Shown in pieces: positions 3,367 to 46,546 of a stretch of DNA of 64,000 nt (position 1 is its first letter; each line of letters begins with the position of its first letter). The translations under genes were made by a program, and so were the position numbers. This DNA is from a virus (taxonomy: Duplodnaviria; Caudoviricetes): positions 7,066-71,065 of IMG/VR virus record IMGVR_UViG_3300024518_002390; one strand, written 5' to 3'. Below the pieces are notes generated by a model that saw nothing but the letters and a program-made list of their open reading frames with translations, was not told the origin of the DNA and did not search any database.

Positions 3367-3716
3367 TGCCCGAGCGTACGGTAAGGTATGCGCCCAAGCG
3401 TATCGGCGTCAACGAACGGCGCCAGTTGCTTGTAAATACGCTGTAACGTACGGAGATGGTACAGTCCGAACGTCCCAGTGCATGCGCCACGGAAGAACTC
3501 CTGTATCTCCGCGGATGTCTGCAGGTAGACCTGCGTTTTGCGCTTGTCGCGTTGCAGTAGTTCCACCAAGTGCAGGCGGCCCGTGTCGTAGGGCTCCTCC
3601 CGTGTGCCGTCAGCTTTGATATGGTCCTCATAGCTGCCGTATTCGCATGCCTCCAACTCCGACTTAACTGCGGCACGGCCGAAGTTAACGACAACCCTAT
3701 CACCTACGTCAATCAT
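3363..3716 (-). CDS. early hypothetical protein
   Basis: 117-aa ORF tightly packed with its neighbours. Confidence 0.65.
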   Translation of the reverse strand: MIDVGDRVVVNFGRAAVKSELEACEYGSYEDHIKADGTREEPYDTGRLHLVELLQRDKRKTQVYLQTSAEIQEFFRGACTGTFGLYHLRTLQRIYKQLAPFVDADTLGRIPYRTLGH

Positions 3717-4207
3717 TATGATCCCTCCTTGCAGTTAAGTGGATCGGCGGATTCTGTTTCCCAGCCGAACATTGAGCCATTGAGCATGGCCATTACCTGC
3801 TCGGTTGTGATGCTTCTCTGCTTGTTAAACCGCTCTACATCAAAGTCGGAGGCCACGCCGGTGTATCCAGCCACCCCCCTATAAAGCAGGATTGCACGGT
3901 GGTATGTAAACTCGTACGCGGCGCAGACACGCGGAAGCCTGTCCCACCGATCTTCTTTTACGTCCCACTCCGCACCGTACTGACCATGCTCCTCTTCGAC
4001 ATACATGCTGCCGAGGATGGCTTTGCGGTGTGCCGGGTCGCGGATATCCTCAGCAACACTCCACACACCGTCCCGCTCATAGATGGCAGTGATCGGCGCT
4101 TCATCTGCCGCTGCCTTCTTTTGCTCGGCCGTGATGTAATAATTGAAGGAGCCCATGCGCCTTCCCCATGCTGCGATGCAAACGTACTCGTGTGGTTTGT
4201 ATTTCAT
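3716..4207 (-). CDS. early hypothetical protein with C-terminal ...AMLNGSMFGW...ADP motif
   Basis: Start at ATG 4207 overlapping the upstream stop; GSMFGW motif recalled from phage/plasmid hypothetical proteins. Confidence 0.7.
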   Translation of the reverse strand: MKYKPHEYVCIAAWGRRMGSFNYYITAEQKKAAADEAPITAIYERDGVWSVAEDIRDPAHRKAILGSMYVEEEHGQYGAEWDVKEDRWDRLPRVCAAYEFTYHRAILLYRGVAGYTGVASDFDVERFNKQRSITTEQVMAMLNGSMFGWETESADPLNCKEGS

Positions 4208-4449
4208 GCTGCCTCCTCGGCCTTCTTGGCCCATGCATCAAACTGCCGAATTGCCGCTTGCTCATCATTCCAAGGTCCTGAATGCCGTAACACGGTATAG
4301 CCCTGTCCAAACTCGTTGTCGATGTGGCCTACCGTGTAGACTTGGAAGTATGCATCAAACGCCTGCCGCTCTCTGCGGAATATAGTTGTAACCAGCCCCA
4401 GCTGGTCGCCAATCTGCCTAGCCCTAATTGTTGTTGGTCCGCTTGCCAT
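4204..4449 (-). CDS. early hypothetical protein
   Basis: ATG 4449 immediately after the upstream stop; 81 aa. Confidence 0.6.
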   Translation of the reverse strand: MASGPTTIRARQIGDQLGLVTTIFRRERQAFDAYFQVYTVGHIDNEFGQGYTVLRHSGPWNDEQAAIRQFDAWAKKAEEAA

Positions 4450-4450
4450 A

Positions 4451-4930
4451 TCAGTATACTCCATCTTCATCAAACCGCACTGCCGAAACAACATGCGAGT
4501 GGCCATCCTCGTAGGCCTCCATTGCGAGGTCCCGACTTTGCGGTCGGATTTCCTCGCGCTCTTCTTCCGTTACTGGGCGCAAGCTAAACGGCCCATCAGC
4601 ATAGCTGTTGATTTCGTCGTATAGCTTGTAATACGCGGCCAACGTGGCCTCGCACTTATGCATGTAACCGCTATATTGTACGCAGTCACAATCCCTGCCC
4701 GACTCGGTAACCCACATTTGGTTGGTGCCCGTAATGCGGCACTCCTCAATGCGAGCGACCTGTTCCCAACGTTCGGCAAGCATACTGTGGATGCCGTCCG
4801 CATTAAACGACGCGAAGCTATTCCTTATCCATAGCTTTACTGTGTCGCCGTTTTTGAAGGCCGCAAATTTCGTGCTAAGAAAATGCGGTACTAGGTCTTC
4901 CACTGTTGCTTTGTCAATTTTCATCGTCAT
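4451..4930 (-). CDS. early hypothetical protein
   Basis: ATG preceded by AGTGAGGGCATTACT; contains RDCDC. Confidence 0.7.
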   Translation of the reverse strand: MTMKIDKATVEDLVPHFLSTKFAAFKNGDTVKLWIRNSFASFNADGIHSMLAERWEQVARIEECRITGTNQMWVTESGRDCDCVQYSGYMHKCEATLAAYYKLYDEINSYADGPFSLRPVTEEEREEIRPQSRDLAMEAYEDGHSHVVSAVRFDEDGVY

Positions 4931-38982: not shown

Positions 38983-40398
38983 TTAGAATCCCGATATGGT
39001 GGTGACGGTAACGGTTGGTTTGGTTACTGGATACAGGTAGGCCGTGGGATAGCCGAGTGCATCGAGCAAGTGTGAAAATTGTTTTTGCTTGAGCCGTAGC
39101 TCGTGTGTATAGGCATGCATATATTTCTGGATCTTCTTGCAGGCCGGGTCTATAGTGAGAGTCGGCCTTCCGCGACTCGGATTAAGCTTGCCATTGACTG
39201 CGTTTTCTCTGTCGCGGATTTTAGGGTTGGCTGATTTACTGATAACTTCGAATTTGGTACGCAACCATGTAAAGTCCGACTGGCCGCCAGGGCTATTTGT
39301 GCTTCTAGCTCGGCCACTAGCGTCTGGGTAAACTGTTCGGATACGGGGCTGCTTATCTCGGTCAAGGAAATTGAGGATTTGACCTTTAACAATTTCCTCG
39401 TTGGTGCCCTCGTTATTCTGCGAAAGAATGTCAACCATGTATTGCGTATCCGCGTTCTCGATTTCAATTTCGGCCACGATATGCATGTGCTTTCCGTTGA
39501 CCCAGAAAACAATGGCGGCCATCGGGTCGACGTTGAAATCCATTCCGACAAGAAGTTCGTGGCCTGGATCTTCGAGCCGAACAACATTGCGTTGTTTACT
39601 AAAGCCATAATAAATTGCTCCTTTACTGAGGTTGACAAAGTCGCCATCAAAGTAGGCCTGCTTCATCCTAGCTGTATAGCCTGATAGCAGTGTGTCCAAG
39701 TACTGCTGTGGTAATGCAAGGTTGGCCGACGTAGGCACATGGATAAGGCCGATGTCGTAGCGGTCCTGATCCTCTCCCTCGCATATGTCGTACCCCCAAT
39801 TCAATTGCTCTGGTGTGCCGAGTAGGCCTATCTCGCGGTGCCGTGCTTTCGGTGCACGCACTCGAGCCAGCATCTGCAAGAACACGGCCTCGTCCTGGAT
39901 GAACGGCTCGTCAATGGTTGCTGTGCCTACGTTCGGACCTTTGAGGCTGTCGGGCTCCTCTCCGGAGCCAATCCATATGCGGCCGGTACGACCTCGGTGT
40001 GTAATGAGGAACTCGTTATCCGATTTGTTGTATCGGTAACGCAGGCCGCTGTCCACAGTCTTCTTACCGTCCAACAATTCGATCATTGTTGGTACCACTG
40101 TGCGCTTCGCAACCTTGTAGGAGGGCGACACCCAAAAATGAGGCTGGCCGTTGTTAAGCAATGCCATAGTGATGGCACGCTTGCTACCTATCAACGTTTT
40201 ACCAGCCCCGTACCCGGCCACCATAGCCTTAATGAAGTTCGGCAAATTCCACCACTTGCGTTGATGGTGAAACATGCCGCCCTTCACAACCGCCCCGTCT
40301 TCCATGATGGGGTCGGAGTCGCGCCAGAACTTACGTACCGAATGCCGAGGCCTGCGTCGTCGGCTTCGGATCGGTACTACATTGGGCTGTGCTGCCAT
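38983..40398 (-). CDS. terL: terminase large subunit
   Basis: Walker A GYGAGKT, Walker B ATIDE, GTPE, nuclease-domain GMDFNVDP, YPDASG, HLLDA. Confidence 0.93.
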   Translation of the reverse strand: MAAQPNVVPIRSRRRRPRHSVRKFWRDSDPIMEDGAVVKGGMFHHQRKWWNLPNFIKAMVAGYGAGKTLIGSKRAITMALLNNGQPHFWVSPSYKVAKRTVVPTMIELLDGKKTVDSGLRYRYNKSDNEFLITHRGRTGRIWIGSGEEPDSLKGPNVGTATIDEPFIQDEAVFLQMLARVRAPKARHREIGLLGTPEQLNWGYDICEGEDQDRYDIGLIHVPTSANLALPQQYLDTLLSGYTARMKQAYFDGDFVNLSKGAIYYGFSKQRNVVRLEDPGHELLVGMDFNVDPMAAIVFWVNGKHMHIVAEIEIENADTQYMVDILSQNNEGTNEEIVKGQILNFLDRDKQPRIRTVYPDASGRARSTNSPGGQSDFTWLRTKFEVISKSANPKIRDRENAVNGKLNPSRGRPTLTIDPACKKIQKYMHAYTHELRLKQKQFSHLLDALGYPTAYLYPVTKPTVTVTTISGF

Positions 40399-41021
40399 TA
40401 CTTACCGCCGTAGCAGGCCGAGGTTATGCGTGCCTTGGACTCAGCGCACTTAATGCGTTCAACACGCCGCTCCTCTTGTAGGAAGGCCAACTCTTCTTTG
40501 AGGCGTTTAATAACAGCCATGTTGGTTACCTCACCAACCATCTTTGTATGGCATTGCTCGATAGCAAGTTCCTTGGCCTCGCCCTTATCCTTAAACGTCT
40601 TGTACAGCGATCGGTTGTGGCACTTCCAATACCAACCAAGCTCGCGTTCGCCTGCTGCAAAGGCATCGTCAGCGGCCTGCTCGAAATCACAAGCATTGGA
40701 ACGCCAAGGGAAGCCGATCATGCCGCTGGCACTATCATTACCAAATGCAAAACCGAACACCCGCAAGCAATTCTCCGAGTTACTGTTCGGCACCATTATA
40801 AGGTCGGCCGGACCAGACTCGTAAGTGCTGTTTACCGACAGCTCATTGCCTTCGTTACTCGCCTCGGCCGCAGCGGTTGCCTCTCCAACTGCACTAGACA
40901 CCGATTCCGCTATTGCATCAGCTTCGGCAGAGGCATTGGCTTCAAGATCCTCGTTCCTATACGTAGCAAGTGCAGGCATGGCCAATGCCAATAAGGTCAG
41001 TGTTATTACTAGCTGTTTCAT
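40398..41021 (-). CDS. exported Cys-containing protein with Sec signal peptide
   Basis: MKQLVITLTLLALAMPALA| then a Ser/Ala-rich linker, ENC...G...G...C domain and coiled coil. Confidence 0.7.
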   Translation of the reverse strand: MKQLVITLTLLALAMPALATYRNEDLEANASAEADAIAESVSSAVGEATAAAEASNEGNELSVNSTYESGPADLIMVPNSNSENCLRVFGFAFGNDSASGMIGFPWRSNACDFEQAADDAFAAGERELGWYWKCHNRSLYKTFKDKGEAKELAIEQCHTKMVGEVTNMAVIKRLKEELAFLQEERRVERIKCAESKARITSACYGGK

Positions 41022-41032
41022 TCCGTTCTCTC

Positions 41033-41341
41033 CTAGGTGAGGGCGACATTGACGTTGGTAACAATACCAGGCGCCGAGTCGTCCGATACAAATGGCTGGT
41101 CTACCGTCATCGAGCGTTGGCCTGCCGTATCAATAACAATCAGCCTGGCAATCCAAGTGCCGTTCTCCAGCTGCGTTATATCCAGCCCCATGGAAGGCGG
41201 TACAACCGTGTCTACGACAACAAAGTTGGCACCCGCATCGGCACTGAGGGATATTTCCACACCAGCTATCTCAGCGGCAGGAAGTGGTAGGCCGCTTTCG
41301 CGGGTGGTAGGTAGATCATAACTAATATGAGCATCTTTCAT
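41033..41341 (-). CDS. Fn3-like single-domain protein with C-terminal A-strand motif
   Basis: AHISYDLP...LENGTWIARLIVIDTAGQRS...DSAPGIVTNVNV. Confidence 0.7.
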   Translation of the reverse strand: MKDAHISYDLPTTRESGLPLPAAEIAGVEISLSADAGANFVVVDTVVPPSMGLDITQLENGTWIARLIVIDTAGQRSMTVDQPFVSDDSAPGIVTNVNVALT

Positions 41342-41439
41342 TGTGCTATCTCCACGTTGGTTACAGGGTTAGGTGGATCGGCCTGACCAAGCAGCTTGCG
41401 CCACCACGCCCGAAACCGATACCAAAATCTTAGGAACAT
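41338..41439 (-). CDS. 33-aa peptide: W/R-rich amphipathic helix plus PPNPVTNVEI motif (below the ORF cutoff)
   Basis: MFLRFWYRFRAWWRKLLGQADPPNPVTNVEIAQ; fills the gap exactly and overlaps both neighbours. Confidence 0.6.
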   Translation of the reverse strand: MFLRFWYRFRAWWRKLLGQADPPNPVTNVEIAQ

Positions 41440-41993
41440 TTAGCGACCACTATGTCGGGTTTTATATCCCCCGACCATATCACATCGGCACGCGGCACTG
41501 CATGGTGTCCGTTTACTGTTTGGTCAGCTATGCAAGGCGTGCCTGCCGGAATAGTACCGACCGGCAGCAACAAAAAGCGATCAGGCTGCTTGATCAGCGT
41601 GTATACCACAAGCTCTTCAACAGTTAGACCGCCGGGGGGATTTGGCCTGGTTGGATCTGCCATTACAGTCTTCACAGCCTCATTCGAATATATCGACTCC
41701 GTGCCGGCAGTATTGTAGGCCGTTGCCACAATGTAATAATCGCCAGCCGCCAAGTTTTCTAGCACATAGCTGGTAACGCTAGGATTGGCCACAGTAACCC
41801 CATTGGGATACTGGCCAGAGGTGTTACCGTAGTAAATCTTATAACCAGCAAGGTCGATCAGTGCGGTACCATCGTCATTGAGCGTTGGCATTGTCCAAGT
41901 CAGTGATATTGCGCCTGCAAATGCTCGGCCTGTAAAAGCACCGAACAATACAAACAACAAACAACAAACCAAAATCTTAATCGTAGTTTTCAT
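41430..41993 (-). CDS. exported fibronectin type III-like protein
   Basis: Signal peptide ...GRAFA|; ISLTW.MP, LAGYKIYYG, L.NL..G.YY...TAYN..G.ES..SN, then PNPPGGLTV and a small Cys-closed domain. Confidence 0.8.
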   Translation of the reverse strand: MKTTIKILVCCLLFVLFGAFTGRAFAGAISLTWTMPTLNDDGTALIDLAGYKIYYGNTSGQYPNGVTVANPSVTSYVLENLAAGDYYIVATAYNTAGTESIYSNEAVKTVMADPTRPNPPGGLTVEELVVYTLIKQPDRFLLLPVGTIPAGTPCIADQTVNGHHAVPRADVIWSGDIKPDIVVAKCS

Positions 41994-42013
41994 GTCGTCG
42001 CTCCTTCCAATGT

Positions 42014-42394
42014 CTAGTCAAAAAATAGCTCGGCCAGGAAGGCCATCACGCTAAGAGTTAATGGCGGGTTCGGCCGAACCTCGATTGCAGGCATTACCAT
42101 CGGCGGCATATCAGCATAATAAAACACCGACCCGTCAGGAAACCGTGCCAGCACCCGTCTGTAATACGTCACCTCGACAGGCCTCGGCACAGTCCCCATG
42201 TCCTCGCAGCTAATCGCTGTACGGTTTAGTGGCACAGGTATTGCAATATCGTAAACACCGACCTCCGTCCCTATGTGAACCTCATACGTGGCATTTGCAA
42301 AGGCCGTAAAGGTCAGCATACAAACTTCGCTGGTATACGTTGGATACTCGGGAGTACTGACACCCAACAATGTAACAGCCAACAAAAGCTTCAT
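42014..42394 (-). CDS. divergent Fn3-like protein with hydrophobic N-terminus
   Basis: YEVHIGTEVGVYD parallels YKIYYGNTSGQY of 41430-41993; C-terminal RPNPPLTLSV. Confidence 0.6.
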   Translation of the reverse strand: MKLLLAVTLLGVSTPEYPTYTSEVCMLTFTAFANATYEVHIGTEVGVYDIAIPVPLNRTAISCEDMGTVPRPVEVTYYRRVLARFPDGSVFYYADMPPMVMPAIEVRPNPPLTLSVMAFLAELFFD

Positions 42395-42774
42395 GTCGTT
42401 ACTTCCTCCATAAATGCTCTACGTACAAGGTCTAAATTCTTCCGGCACTCGGCCGGGTCAATATACCCGTTACTGGCAATGAGCGGTTGTTCCATATCGT
42501 CGGGGCCGCTATAAACACGCCAATACCACAATCGGCTGTATTCGCTTTGGCAGACGACCACTGAGGACTTGACTGGAAGTGTTGCATCCATGCCCTTCAC
42601 ACAACAACGCTCCATCGTTGTTAGTTCGGCACCCCAACCGGAGAAGCAGAATCGGTCGACCTCTCCAGTCAATTCTTTGTAGGCCGCCCGCACTGCACGA
42701 CGTAATGGTACGTCGGCATTGGATGGCAATAGCTCGCCCTCCACCTCTCCTATCTTGCATTCCCATATCCTCAT
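42391..42774 (-). CDS. hypothetical protein with C-terminal YegP/DUF1508-like segment
   Basis: WYWRVY...LIASNGY.....C..NL..V. Confidence 0.55.
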   Translation of the reverse strand: MRIWECKIGEVEGELLPSNADVPLRRAVRAAYKELTGEVDRFCFSGWGAELTTMERCCVKGMDATLPVKSSVVVCQSEYSRLWYWRVYSGPDDMEQPLIASNGYIDPAECRKNLDLVRRAFMEEVTT

Positions 42775-43160
42775 GCCGCTGTATCTCCTGTAGCTGGATT
42801 CCACCACTTAAAGGCGGCCGCGTGTCTACACCTGTAGCAGGTAAGAGTGCCGGACTGATGTAAATGGAAGCGGTTATGTCGGCAGCGTGAACAAACAAAG
42901 TTGTCGAGGTGGTCTACACGGCTTTCGTGCAAGTACGGACGGCGCTTGTCGTCGCCTGCCCTCAACTTCTCTGGCTCGTAGTGCTCAAACACGCTTGGTG
43001 CGCTGCACTGGCCGCAGATAATCTCGCCCTCAGGTAATAGGCGGTGGCCTTGGTCCTTGCATGCCCCACAACCATATACCTGCTTATCGGCATCAGGCGT
43101 AGCCTCTGCACACGGCATAGCTTGGCCATTGCATCTGTTAATATTCGTTACCTTTTCCAT
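42771..43160 (-). CDS. Zn-finger-rich hypothetical protein
   Basis: Four CxxC pairs. Confidence 0.65.
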   Translation of the reverse strand: MEKVTNINRCNGQAMPCAEATPDADKQVYGCGACKDQGHRLLPEGEIICGQCSAPSVFEHYEPEKLRAGDDKRRPYLHESRVDHLDNFVCSRCRHNRFHLHQSGTLTCYRCRHAAAFKWWNPATGDTAA

Positions 43161-44601: not shown

Positions 44602-44789
44602 CTCCCTCGTGCTGGTTTCGGTTGTTTCGGTTGTACTTTCGGCGGCCGATAATTACGCAGTGTCGCAGACCTTCCATTTGTTGACAGCGATAGCGAAAGT
44701 GAACCGAAACTTAGACAGTGACAGCCTGCCAGTTTTCGCCTATCTTCCCGGTCGTCCCATTCCTCTGTGCCGCGTTGGATCATTGACAT
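44589..44789 (-). CDS. small hypothetical protein
   Basis: 66-aa ORF filling the gap between coupled genes. Confidence 0.4.
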   Translation of the reverse strand: MSMIQRGTEEWDDREDRRKLAGCHCLSFGSLSLSLSTNGRSATLRNYRPPKVQPKQPKPARGRWRW

Positions 44790-44986
44790 ACCTGTCTACT
44801 GCCGTTCGCGGATACTGCCCAATAGCAATTAGACCCGGCCGACTTACTGTCAGCATTAGCAACAACTGCGCCACCAATTACAATGCCGCCTACCAATGCC
44901 CATGTCTTGCCGGAATCATATACGCCGTTTGTTGTACAGCCTGCCATAGCCAGTATGGCGATTAGGATTGTAATGAGACGTTTCAT
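44780..44986 (-). CDS. small lipoprotein
   Basis: MKRLITILIAILAMAGC lipobox; Gly-zipper-like LVGGIVIGGAVVA; AAGGAG SD. Confidence 0.7.
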   Translation of the reverse strand: MKRLITILIAILAMAGCTTNGVYDSGKTWALVGGIVIGGAVVANADSKSAGSNCYWAVSANGSRQVCQ

Positions 44987-45344: not shown

Positions 45345-45932
45345 TTACTGCTTATTGCTTGCAGGCATTAGCTCGTGGTAATGATTTTTGAACGAGTCGT
45401 TTGCATAATCGGTAGGCCATACCAGCATGTTGCGCAGGATATATTCGTCCGATAAGAATACACCGCGGGGCATTGTCTTACCTTTACTATGCATGAGGTG
45501 GTAGGCCTCATAGTATGCCGCCCACTCATCTGCTTGCTTGATAAGTGTACCCTCGTGAGGCTCGAAGTCCTTCCCCAATAGCCCTACATGCACTGCCTTT
45601 TGCATGCGTTGCTTGAGCCTCTCGATTGGCGCACGTAAGTCGAGCAGGTTAGACATCGGTGCAATAATGTCACCTATGTAGGCCTCGTGCGCGTCGTGCA
45701 GTAGCGCAGTCAATAACAAAGCATTGTCAGCCCCTGCCGACGTTTGTTTTACCCGGTTCAATACCAGCACACTATGCTGTGCAACGGTATACACGTTCTC
45801 CTTATTCGTTGCTCCACCAAAGCGTGGAATCCTACTGAGGTGCCATGCAATGTCCTCAATACATACGTCAGCAGGGTCCGGCCGACTAAGATCAATTAGT
45901 CGGCCTGTATACGTTTCCATCCTTGTGCTCAC
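45345..45932 (-). CDS. HD-domain 5'-deoxynucleotidase (YfbR/YfdR-like)
   Basis: IEDIAWHLSRIPRFGG, YTVAQHSV, ALLHDAHEAYIGD, IKQAD; GTG start overlapping the upstream TGA. Confidence 0.88.
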   Translation of the reverse strand: MSTRMETYTGRLIDLSRPDPADVCIEDIAWHLSRIPRFGGATNKENVYTVAQHSVLVLNRVKQTSAGADNALLLTALLHDAHEAYIGDIIAPMSNLLDLRAPIERLKQRMQKAVHVGLLGKDFEPHEGTLIKQADEWAAYYEAYHLMHSKGKTMPRGVFLSDEYILRNMLVWPTDYANDSFKNHYHELMPASNKQ

Positions 45933-46546
45933 TTCCCTAACTCCCTGTTGCGTCTGTACTGCATTGTGAAGCCCATGCCAGGTACTGTGCTGCCGGGTTT
46001 CCAGCCGATCCAAAATTCCGAATAGGTTATATTTCCGGCCTTGTTGAGCTCGGGATTTATCCACACTGATCGGTAGCCAGCAAACGCGCCGTTAAACGCC
46101 CAGCGATAGGCTGACAGTATTGAGGCACCTAGCAGGCTATGCGCTTCCATTTCTTGCGTTGCCCAATTGCCGCTGTAGTTGGCCTCCCTATCGTCGAATA
46201 CATACCGCAGATTATTTACCGGGTTACGTACTACATACCACCACCACCGCGGGAAGCGTTTGATGAAACCCCCTTTTGCCAATGCTTGCTCTCCCCACCA
46301 GGCCGGACATCCTTCTTCATCGTTTCCCCACAGCCATAACAGCTTCGGCCAATCATCGAACAACAAAGCAATTGGCACAGTAATAACACCCAGGAATATA
46401 AGGCCTACCGGTAAGAAAGCCTGCCACGCTGCTATGTCGGCAAACGGCCACACCATCAGTAGCGGAAAAGTGTGCAGCAATACAAGCGGAATCCAACTCA
46501 GTATGTACATGGCCTTTCTGGCCCTGCTTAGTTTAACAATCTTCAT
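45929..46546 (-). CDS. Trp-rich membrane protein
   Basis: Two N-terminal TMs; WLWGNDEEG, W..RNP.NN, IGWK motifs seen in phage hypothetical proteins. Confidence 0.7.
   Translation of the reverse strand: MKIVKLSRARKAMYILSWIPLVLLHTFPLLMVWPFADIAAWQAFLPVGLIFLGVITVPIALLFDDWPKLLWLWGNDEEGCPAWWGEQALAKGGFIKRFPRWWWYVVRNPVNNLRYVFDDREANYSGNWATQEMEAHSLLGASILSAYRWAFNGAFAGYRSVWINPELNKAGNITYSEFWIGWKPGSTVPGMGFTMQYRRNRELGK

Follow-up and report, generated by a model that had tools for sequence, protein, structure and literature searches.

The best explanation that we can offer for the short genes lying upstream of the large terminase gene in this phage genome, and one that we hold to be moderately probable, is that three of them (B, C, and D) form a mobile trio with an accessory, envelope-directed role, in which the products of C and D together make up a single Fn3 domain and the 33-residue product of C anchors that of D.

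The window (the 64-kb stretch of DNA that was analyzed) is part of a genome represented by a 71,065-bp single contig, and all of its genes are on the minus strand. PHROG matches were obtained for a large terminase (38983-40398), portal, MuF-like head protein, scaffold, major head protein, tape measure, and J-like fiber, and these identify the genome as that of a siphophage. DNA of the genome is present in seawater metagenomes, and in the region around 41 kb the contigs of four seawater runs are identical across 40980-42450, the C/D junction included, allowing us to conclude that the odd gene junctions described below are not assembly errors. Five ORFs precede the terminase gene in the order of transcription A (126 aa), B (187 aa), C (33 aa), D (102 aa), and E (207 aa), and all were confirmed on the minus strand at the coordinates given below. 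No recognizable small terminase gene was found directly upstream of the large terminase gene (window 38983-42807), a position that is occupied by E and the cassette. Two other features of this part of the genome are a small ORF upstream of the cassette (44780-44977), which lies among small membrane and exported proteins and has a textbook lipoprotein signal (a lipobox ending in Cys) and no PHROG family, and a multi-pass membrane protein of ~200 aa with a Trp-rich C-terminal part and no family match, which is encoded near the cassette both in the window (45929-46546) and in the related locus L004 (4608-5186).

A preliminary description of this DNA had proposed a module of four genes, A to D, and had noted E as a further exported protein after them. 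To define the conserved unit we combined three scans: a terminase scan, which yielded two close relatives carrying the module (L002 and L004), a scan of viral contigs using an alignment of D, which yielded ten more loci, and scans of genomes and metagenomes, which yielded another 27; the genome-contig scan contributed one locus only, in a WOR-3 MAG. Among loci with enough flanking sequence, the order B, C, D was found in all 40 (the window and these 39 further loci), with a middle ORF of 26-45 aa between B and D. Gene A (42014-42394, minus strand; 126 aa with a hydrophobic N-terminus) is a lineage-specific ORFan that is missing from all 39 other loci, including the closest relative L002 and L004, and that has no homolog among 5.8 billion proteins. 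Its assignment as an Fn3 subunit could not be sustained, as there is no profile similarity to B or D and an Ig/Fn3-like fold is indicated by a weak Atlas model only (pLDDT 0.62, TM 0.52-0.63). The Pro-rich strand motif at the end of A closely resembles the linker of B (41625-41663), both beginning Arg-Pro-Asn-Pro-Pro; the codons of the two motifs differ at synonymous sites, and in A the motif is followed by a short amphipathic helix. Gene E (40398-41021, minus strand; 207 aa with a signal peptide) lies outside the cassette and is shared with the closest relatives only: by tblastn it has 42% identity in L002, a weak match in L005, and none in L081-L117, and it belongs to no Pfam or PHROG family. 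Its N-terminal half is of low complexity and variable, its C-terminal half (compared with the L002 counterpart at 3700-4473) is conserved, contains Cys, and has a coiled-coil-like end, and its stop codon overlaps the terminase start. As A and E are confined to the window or its nearest relatives, the conserved unit is the trio B-C-D.

Gene D (41033-41341, minus strand; 102 aa) encodes Fn3 strands B to G (residues 1-86; 41084-41341), as delimited in its AF2 model, and a conserved Asp/Pro linker with a strand-A-like tail (residues 87-102; 41036-41083), as delimited by alignment of homologs and structural superposition. The AlphaFold model of D, built with 27 homologs, has a pLDDT of 95 and six confident strands, B to G, without strand A. 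In structural alignments with single Fn3 domains of known structure (Z up to 9.9, with an rmsd of 1.8 Å for 77 residues), the first residue of D fell at residue 14-22 of those domains; strand A is therefore missing in D. No Pfam match was obtained for D, PF00041 included. On its own D is six-stranded from strand B onward, short of the seven-strand Fn3 sandwich, and the full seven-strand domain would exist only for C and D together, judging from the natural fusions described below. All 27 close homologs of D (101-106 aa) begin at strand B and end in the Asp/Pro linker and a strand of alternating hydrophobic residues, and this tail is kept in 106 relatives, with the linker Pro at least 90% conserved. 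An exhaustive profile search with D gave 445 proteins at E < 1e-10; among the best 150 cluster representatives (50% identity), 82 are stand-alone proteins of D size, and 76 of the 82 have the tail. The original observation that D starts at strand B and ends in a strand-A-like motif is thus borne out by the model, by the alignment to solved domains, and by the relatives.

The tail itself resembles the start of another Fn3 domain. In a superposition with a tandem Fn3 pair (3pdd_A, rmsd 2.9 Å, 87 residues), the final 16 residues of D coincide with the linker and next-domain strand A, and the DxTAP-plus-strand element of the tail is also what joins one tandem Ig repeat to the next in giant adhesins. 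D therefore resembles a single repeat excised out of register. The monomer model leaves the tail unpaired, and the domains that had been described as permuted folds are better described as truncated domains with an extra strand. We considered D as an in-cis circular permutant and rejected this, as the unpaired tail leaves the domain from the pole where strand B starts and would in cis be forced to run parallel to strand B.

Gene C (41338-41439, minus strand; 33 aa) was unannotated, and the preliminary description had listed its translation and conservation as points to check. The ORF is open and intact in all 40 loci, and its dN/dS is 0.15 over non-overlapping codons; by these measures C is a real gene under purifying selection. 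Its start overlaps the last codons of B and, in the window, its stop overlaps the start of D (ATGA). Residues 1-19 (41383-41439) are predicted from their charge and hydrophobic moment (0.68, z 2.4) to form a cationic W/R amphipathic helix, and this head is net positive in 28 of 28 peptides, with charges of +1 to +7. A true TM helix takes the place of the amphipathic head in L087, L104, P0089, and P0107, and in L087, L104, and P0107 it is followed by a Lys/Arg cluster. The head of C therefore looks like a membrane-binding anchor, in keeping with the anchoring role first suggested for the peptide. Residues 20-33 (41341-41382) comprise a Pro-rich turn and an Fn3 strand A, assigned by the strand-A consensus that the last dozen residues fit, and in 40/40 loci this strand ends 3-5 residues ahead of the first Met of D, that is, in the turn between strands A and B. 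A role for the Pro-Pro motif in EF-P stalling was considered and rejected, since the motif is missing from several lineages.

Sequence comparison gives good support to the view that C and D correspond to the two parts of a single Fn3 domain, divided at the turn between strands A and B. Ten cluster representatives of 135-148 aa, all predicted metagenome proteins (e.g., P0085, P0089, P0107, and P0145), join head, strand A, and D in a single reading frame, and such natural fusions constitute Rosetta-stone evidence for assigning C and D to the same domain. The family is large, with these 10 fused clusters standing beside the 82 stand-alone ones among the best 150 matches. A Met is kept exactly at the start of D in 10/10 fusions, which hints that the fused genes may still yield D alone. 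Where the two genes are split, the junction takes many forms (overlaps of 4-16 nt in either frame, abutting ends, an in-frame stop, or a short spacer), with a frame relation of -1 in most loci, a +1 overlap in L002, an in-frame stop (0) in L097, and gaps of 8-39 nt in L092-95. This variety excludes a conserved frameshift and indicates that two polypeptides are what is kept. The earlier proposal of complementation in trans is thus upheld as far as C and D are concerned: with natural fusions and a cut placed exactly in the A-B turn, D is probably complemented by the strand of C.

The arrangement of translation signals is also shared among the loci. The start of C lies within 15 nt of the stop of B, and the end of C overlaps or abuts the start of D in most junctions, the short spacers of L092-95 apart. 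A match of at least 4 nt to AGGAGG precedes D in 29 of 32 loci and C in 1 of 32. As C is without a Shine-Dalgarno sequence in 31/32 loci, its translation appears to be coupled to that of B, and D, having a Shine-Dalgarno sequence of its own, would be made independently and probably in excess over C. In the window this sequence is GGAG (41350-41353, minus strand), inside the Val-Glu codons of strand A of C; equivalent sites in L081-L117 (AAGGAG or GGAG) are likewise built from conserved Lys-Glu or Val-Glu codons of that strand, so that these residues are under both protein and translational constraint.

A further connection between the two proteins was found in the sequences of their terminal strands. 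The strand of C is closer to the tail of D from its own genome than to the tails of other genomes (permutation p 2e-4, ten split loci). When shuffling was allowed only within the two main subgroups (Val-type and Leu-type) the exact p was 0.015, and with the ten fusions added p was about 5e-6 for 20 pairs that are not phylogenetically independent. In 15/20 cases the tail of a genome's own D beats that of the nearest relative, and rare motifs, such as TNFIG and NITS, are common to strand A and the D tail of one protein. This co-variation could stem from gene conversion or shared ancestry; in the window, however, the codons of the C strand and D tail differ at synonymous sites, which argues against recent gene conversion. 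The co-variation suggests that the C strand and the D tail fit one site, the open B edge of D, and a groove shared by both strands is what head-to-tail chaining or a swapped dimer would require. We infer both C:D and D:D contacts from these patterns, and the co-variation makes self-polymerization of D plausible. Complex prediction with two copies of D gave scores of 0.37, 0.43, and 0.39 (mark 0.42; controls 0.00), values that speak neither for binding nor against it.

Alternatively, there may be no strand donation, D being an autonomous six-stranded Fn3 domain and the C strand and D tail being copies of a linear motif that is read by a third party (a host or phage protein), with C bound to the membrane. 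Related six-stranded Fn3 domains do occur by themselves in bacterial proteins, flanked by low-complexity linkers or coming straight after a signal peptide, so that the open edge need not be filled, and the normal absence of strand A in this Fn3 subtype makes the case for obligatory complementation of D less compelling. Consistent with this, D models well alone with its tail unpaired, and a common external receptor would likewise account for a motif present in two co-varying copies. We nevertheless consider this unlikely, because the strand is separated from strand B by the length of a hairpin, just as canonical Fn3 domains have it, in the ten fusions and in all 40 split loci, and because a whole-genome scan found no other protein ending in the C/D strand motif.

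Gene B (41430-41993, minus strand; 187 aa) encodes a signal peptide (residues 1-26; 41916-41993) with an AxA site that directly precedes strand B in the alignment, an Fn3 domain without strand A (residues 27-110; 41664-41915) identified by its AF2 strands and Foldseek, a Pro-rich linker (residues 111-123; 41625-41663) modeled at low confidence, and a beta-rich C-terminal domain (residues 124-187; 41433-41624) with two invariant Cys. Against Pfam fn3 (PF00041) B scored E 5.4e-5 and 23.8 bits (gathering cut-off 25) over profile positions 16-78 of 84, and its own profile matches many solved Fn3 domains (titin, E 8e-22). Its AF2 model has a pLDDT of 84, and Foldseek returned Fn3 matches only, with a TM of 0.72 to FN11. 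The domain begins at strand B and has six strands in place of the seven of the A-B-C-C'-E-F-G sandwich. All 12 B homologs have a signal peptide with an AxA site, strand B 1-4 residues later, and an Fn3 domain, variable linker, and 64-aa beta domain in that order, and C154 and C186 are invariant in their alignment; the Sec signal and the start at strand B that had been noted for B were thus both confirmed. Going by these features, B would be a periplasmic, disulfide-bonded protein. The proposed C-terminal donor motif, which stands for D and C, does not stand for B: here the Pro-rich motif is an inter-domain linker (pLDDT ~60) ahead of the 64-aa C-terminal domain, and its Pro-rich part is absent in 5/12 homologs. 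The Fn3 subtype of B is common in bacterial secreted proteins, where too strand B directly follows a signal peptide or another domain, and since such domains normally start at strand B, the open edge of B is not special. The bacterial He_PIG-Fn3 proteins P0036, P0043, and P0061 have Fn3 domains 55-66% identical to that of B, in which strand B lies four residues past the last strand of the preceding domain.

Neither C nor D has a signal peptide, and their N-termini are hydrophilic or amphipathic. By the positive-inside rule alone, the Lys/Arg cluster that follows the TM helix in some variants of C would place the C strand, and with it D, on the cytoplasmic side. Export of C and D by Tat or as hitch-hikers was considered and rejected, the signals of B being of Sec type.

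The mechanism that we propose for the trio is as follows. C would sit at the inner membrane, on its cytoplasmic side, attached by its amphipathic or TM head, and would capture D by adding its strand to the open B edge of D (beta-strand complementation). D, which has a strong ribosome-binding site of its own and so is probably in excess over C, could plug its tail into the same site of another D, and the result would be a short head-to-tail chain of D, or a swapped dimer, hanging from the C anchor. B would be made from the same message, with ribosomes that finish B re-initiating on C, and would be exported to the periplasm, where its Fn3 and disulfide-closed domains may act across the membrane from C and D. 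The fullest version of this scheme, in which D elongates a donor-strand Fn3 chain that needs no chaperone and is nucleated on C at the cytoplasmic inner-membrane face of infected cells, C serves solely as donor and initiator and is synthesized in step with B, and D is both acceptor and donor and is produced in excess from its own Shine-Dalgarno sequence, is one that we put forward tentatively, as a possibility we lean against.

It is also conceivable that the chain runs C-D-B, the tail of D completing the Fn3 domain of B, with the partners meeting either after export of C and D by an unknown route or at lysis. Two donors (C and D) and two acceptors (D and B) would then make a closed set, gene order and translational coupling are strict in 40 loci, and the mature N-terminus of B always lies 1-4 residues before strand B. 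Such a chain seems quite unlikely to us, however, as the compartments of B and D differ, the co-variation ties the tail of D to the strand of C and so to the site on D itself, and B-type Fn3 domains without strand A are common and apparently autonomous.

The original proposal, a single exported and self-polymerizing donor-strand filament, periplasmic or on the surface, made of all four subunits A, B, C, and D, anchored by C and capped by B, draws on the lack of strand A in B and D, the strand-A motifs that end D and C, and the signal peptides of B and E. We find it very unlikely. C and D have no export signal and the TM variants of C put its strand, and D, in the cytoplasm, so that with B in the periplasm neither an exported filament nor a cap formed by B is readily accommodated; moreover, A is an ORFan confined to the window, the motif of B is a partly unconserved internal linker, and Fn3 domains of the B type normally start at strand B in bacterial proteins.

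Finally, although a strand A ending one ORF and a strand B opening the next have the look of a broken tandem array, and the Shine-Dalgarno sequence of D lies inside C as it might in a regulatory uORF, we regard it as extremely improbable that these ORFs are debris of a multi-Fn3 gene (a pseudogene or an assembly error), a programmed frameshift pair, or a uORF with its target, given that 40 loci share the same cut, at D-core identities as low as about 35%, that the frame relation varies (-1, +1, 0) and there is no conserved slip site, that four independent assemblies agree, and that the C peptide is under purifying selection.

In L082 the trio lies beside an unrelated terminase pair, and in the unrelated contigs L085 (5452-6890), L088 (5655-6970), L090 (5339-6810), and L091 (6325-8590) it is directly followed by genes for a GT2 or GT-D glycosyltransferase, an FkbM or other methyltransferase, and a nucleotidyl-transferase. 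These sugar-modifying neighbors hint at a link to modification of the envelope or of glycans. No DNA or protein match to the cassette was found among INPHARED phages, i.e., no cultured phage with the cassette in that collection, and profile searches assigned the cassette to neither a Pfam nor a PHROG family; any matches to these collections for C, D, E, A, and the upstream genes were at chance level. B-C-D thus behaves as a mobile cassette and not as part of one virion design, and since it moves between unrelated phage backbones it is probably an accessory, envelope-directed module, most likely one with a role such as superinfection exclusion or envelope/glycan remodeling. The virion appendage that had been raised as an option is, for the same reason of its occurrence in unrelated backbones, unlikely. 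The trio is not located in the operons for tail and head, it has unrelated terminases and sugar-modifying genes nearby, and B carries a signal peptide; the cassette is probably not part of the virion.

Should these readings hold, the family would represent a naturally split Fn3 domain, split family-wide, with one strand and a membrane anchor combined in a micropeptide about 35 residues long. The coexistence in nature of split and fused C-D forms provides a clean system in which strand complementation might be studied outside pili, and C may be viewed as a compact natural "snap-on" membrane tag, a further reason to annotate very short phage ORFs. That PHROGs, Pfam, and the records of cultured phages do not contain the family, and that it moves between backbones, points to what is probably an unrecognized accessory function at the host envelope. 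If D does form chains, donor-strand polymerization would be extended to the cytoplasm and to viruses, as an intracellular, phage-encoded counterpart of pilus assembly.

Chaperone-usher pili (Fim, Pap) are built of Ig-like subunits without the C-terminal G strand, for which the N-terminal extension of the next subunit is the donor. Donor-strand complementation and exchange in these pili have been reviewed (PMC2500206). The likeness to the cassette is that a subunit without one edge strand would be supplied with it by a short extension of another, that subunits having both groove and donor can chain head to tail, and that initiator-like and elongating parts can be distinguished. However, the cassette misses the first strand (A) and not the last (G), its donor is C-terminal and not N-terminal, neither D nor C has a Sec signal, and their predicted location is cytoplasmic. 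Pili also need a periplasmic chaperone and an outer-membrane usher, and no large usher-like ORF was found beside the trio in 40 loci. Unlike pilins, the Fn3 subtype of the cassette may be stable without the missing strand, and chaining is a candidate property only. Pilus donor-strand exchange may therefore be taken as a comparable mechanism, whose defining features the cassette does not share.

Within phages, the nearest parallel is the baseplate of Lactococcus phage Tuc2009, in which a C-terminal hairpin of BppU completes domain 2 of BppA (PMC4742702). In both cases a short C-terminal extension completes, or in the cassette would complete, a beta-sheet in a small titin-like sandwich that is the product of another gene; for the cassette, the anatomy of the sequences and the natural fusions agree with such an arrangement. 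The BppU/BppA contact is a joint of the virion baseplate in which two strands are donated and there is no membrane anchor, and BppA, unlike D, has no second donor on the acceptor and no family relation to it; the cassette, lying outside the tail and head operons, also differs from a virion adhesion device of this type. We know of no natural fused and split forms of BppU/BppA.

Ig-like and Fn3 domains are appended to phage structural proteins by programmed frameshift, as Fraser et al. reportedly described in 2006 in J Mol Biol. As there, small Ig-type domains lie at the ends of genes in adjacent frames; in the cassette, however, the frame relation of C and D is unconserved, each piece has its own start and is a separate protein, and there is no attachment to capsid or tail genes. 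Lastly, in comparison with the tandem Fn3/Ig arrays of titin, fibronectin, and giant adhesins, D with its tail corresponds to one repeat taken out of register (strands B to G plus the next A). As the D units are separate proteins of 102 aa, unlike the repeats of titin-type arrays, any array of D would be a non-covalent one.
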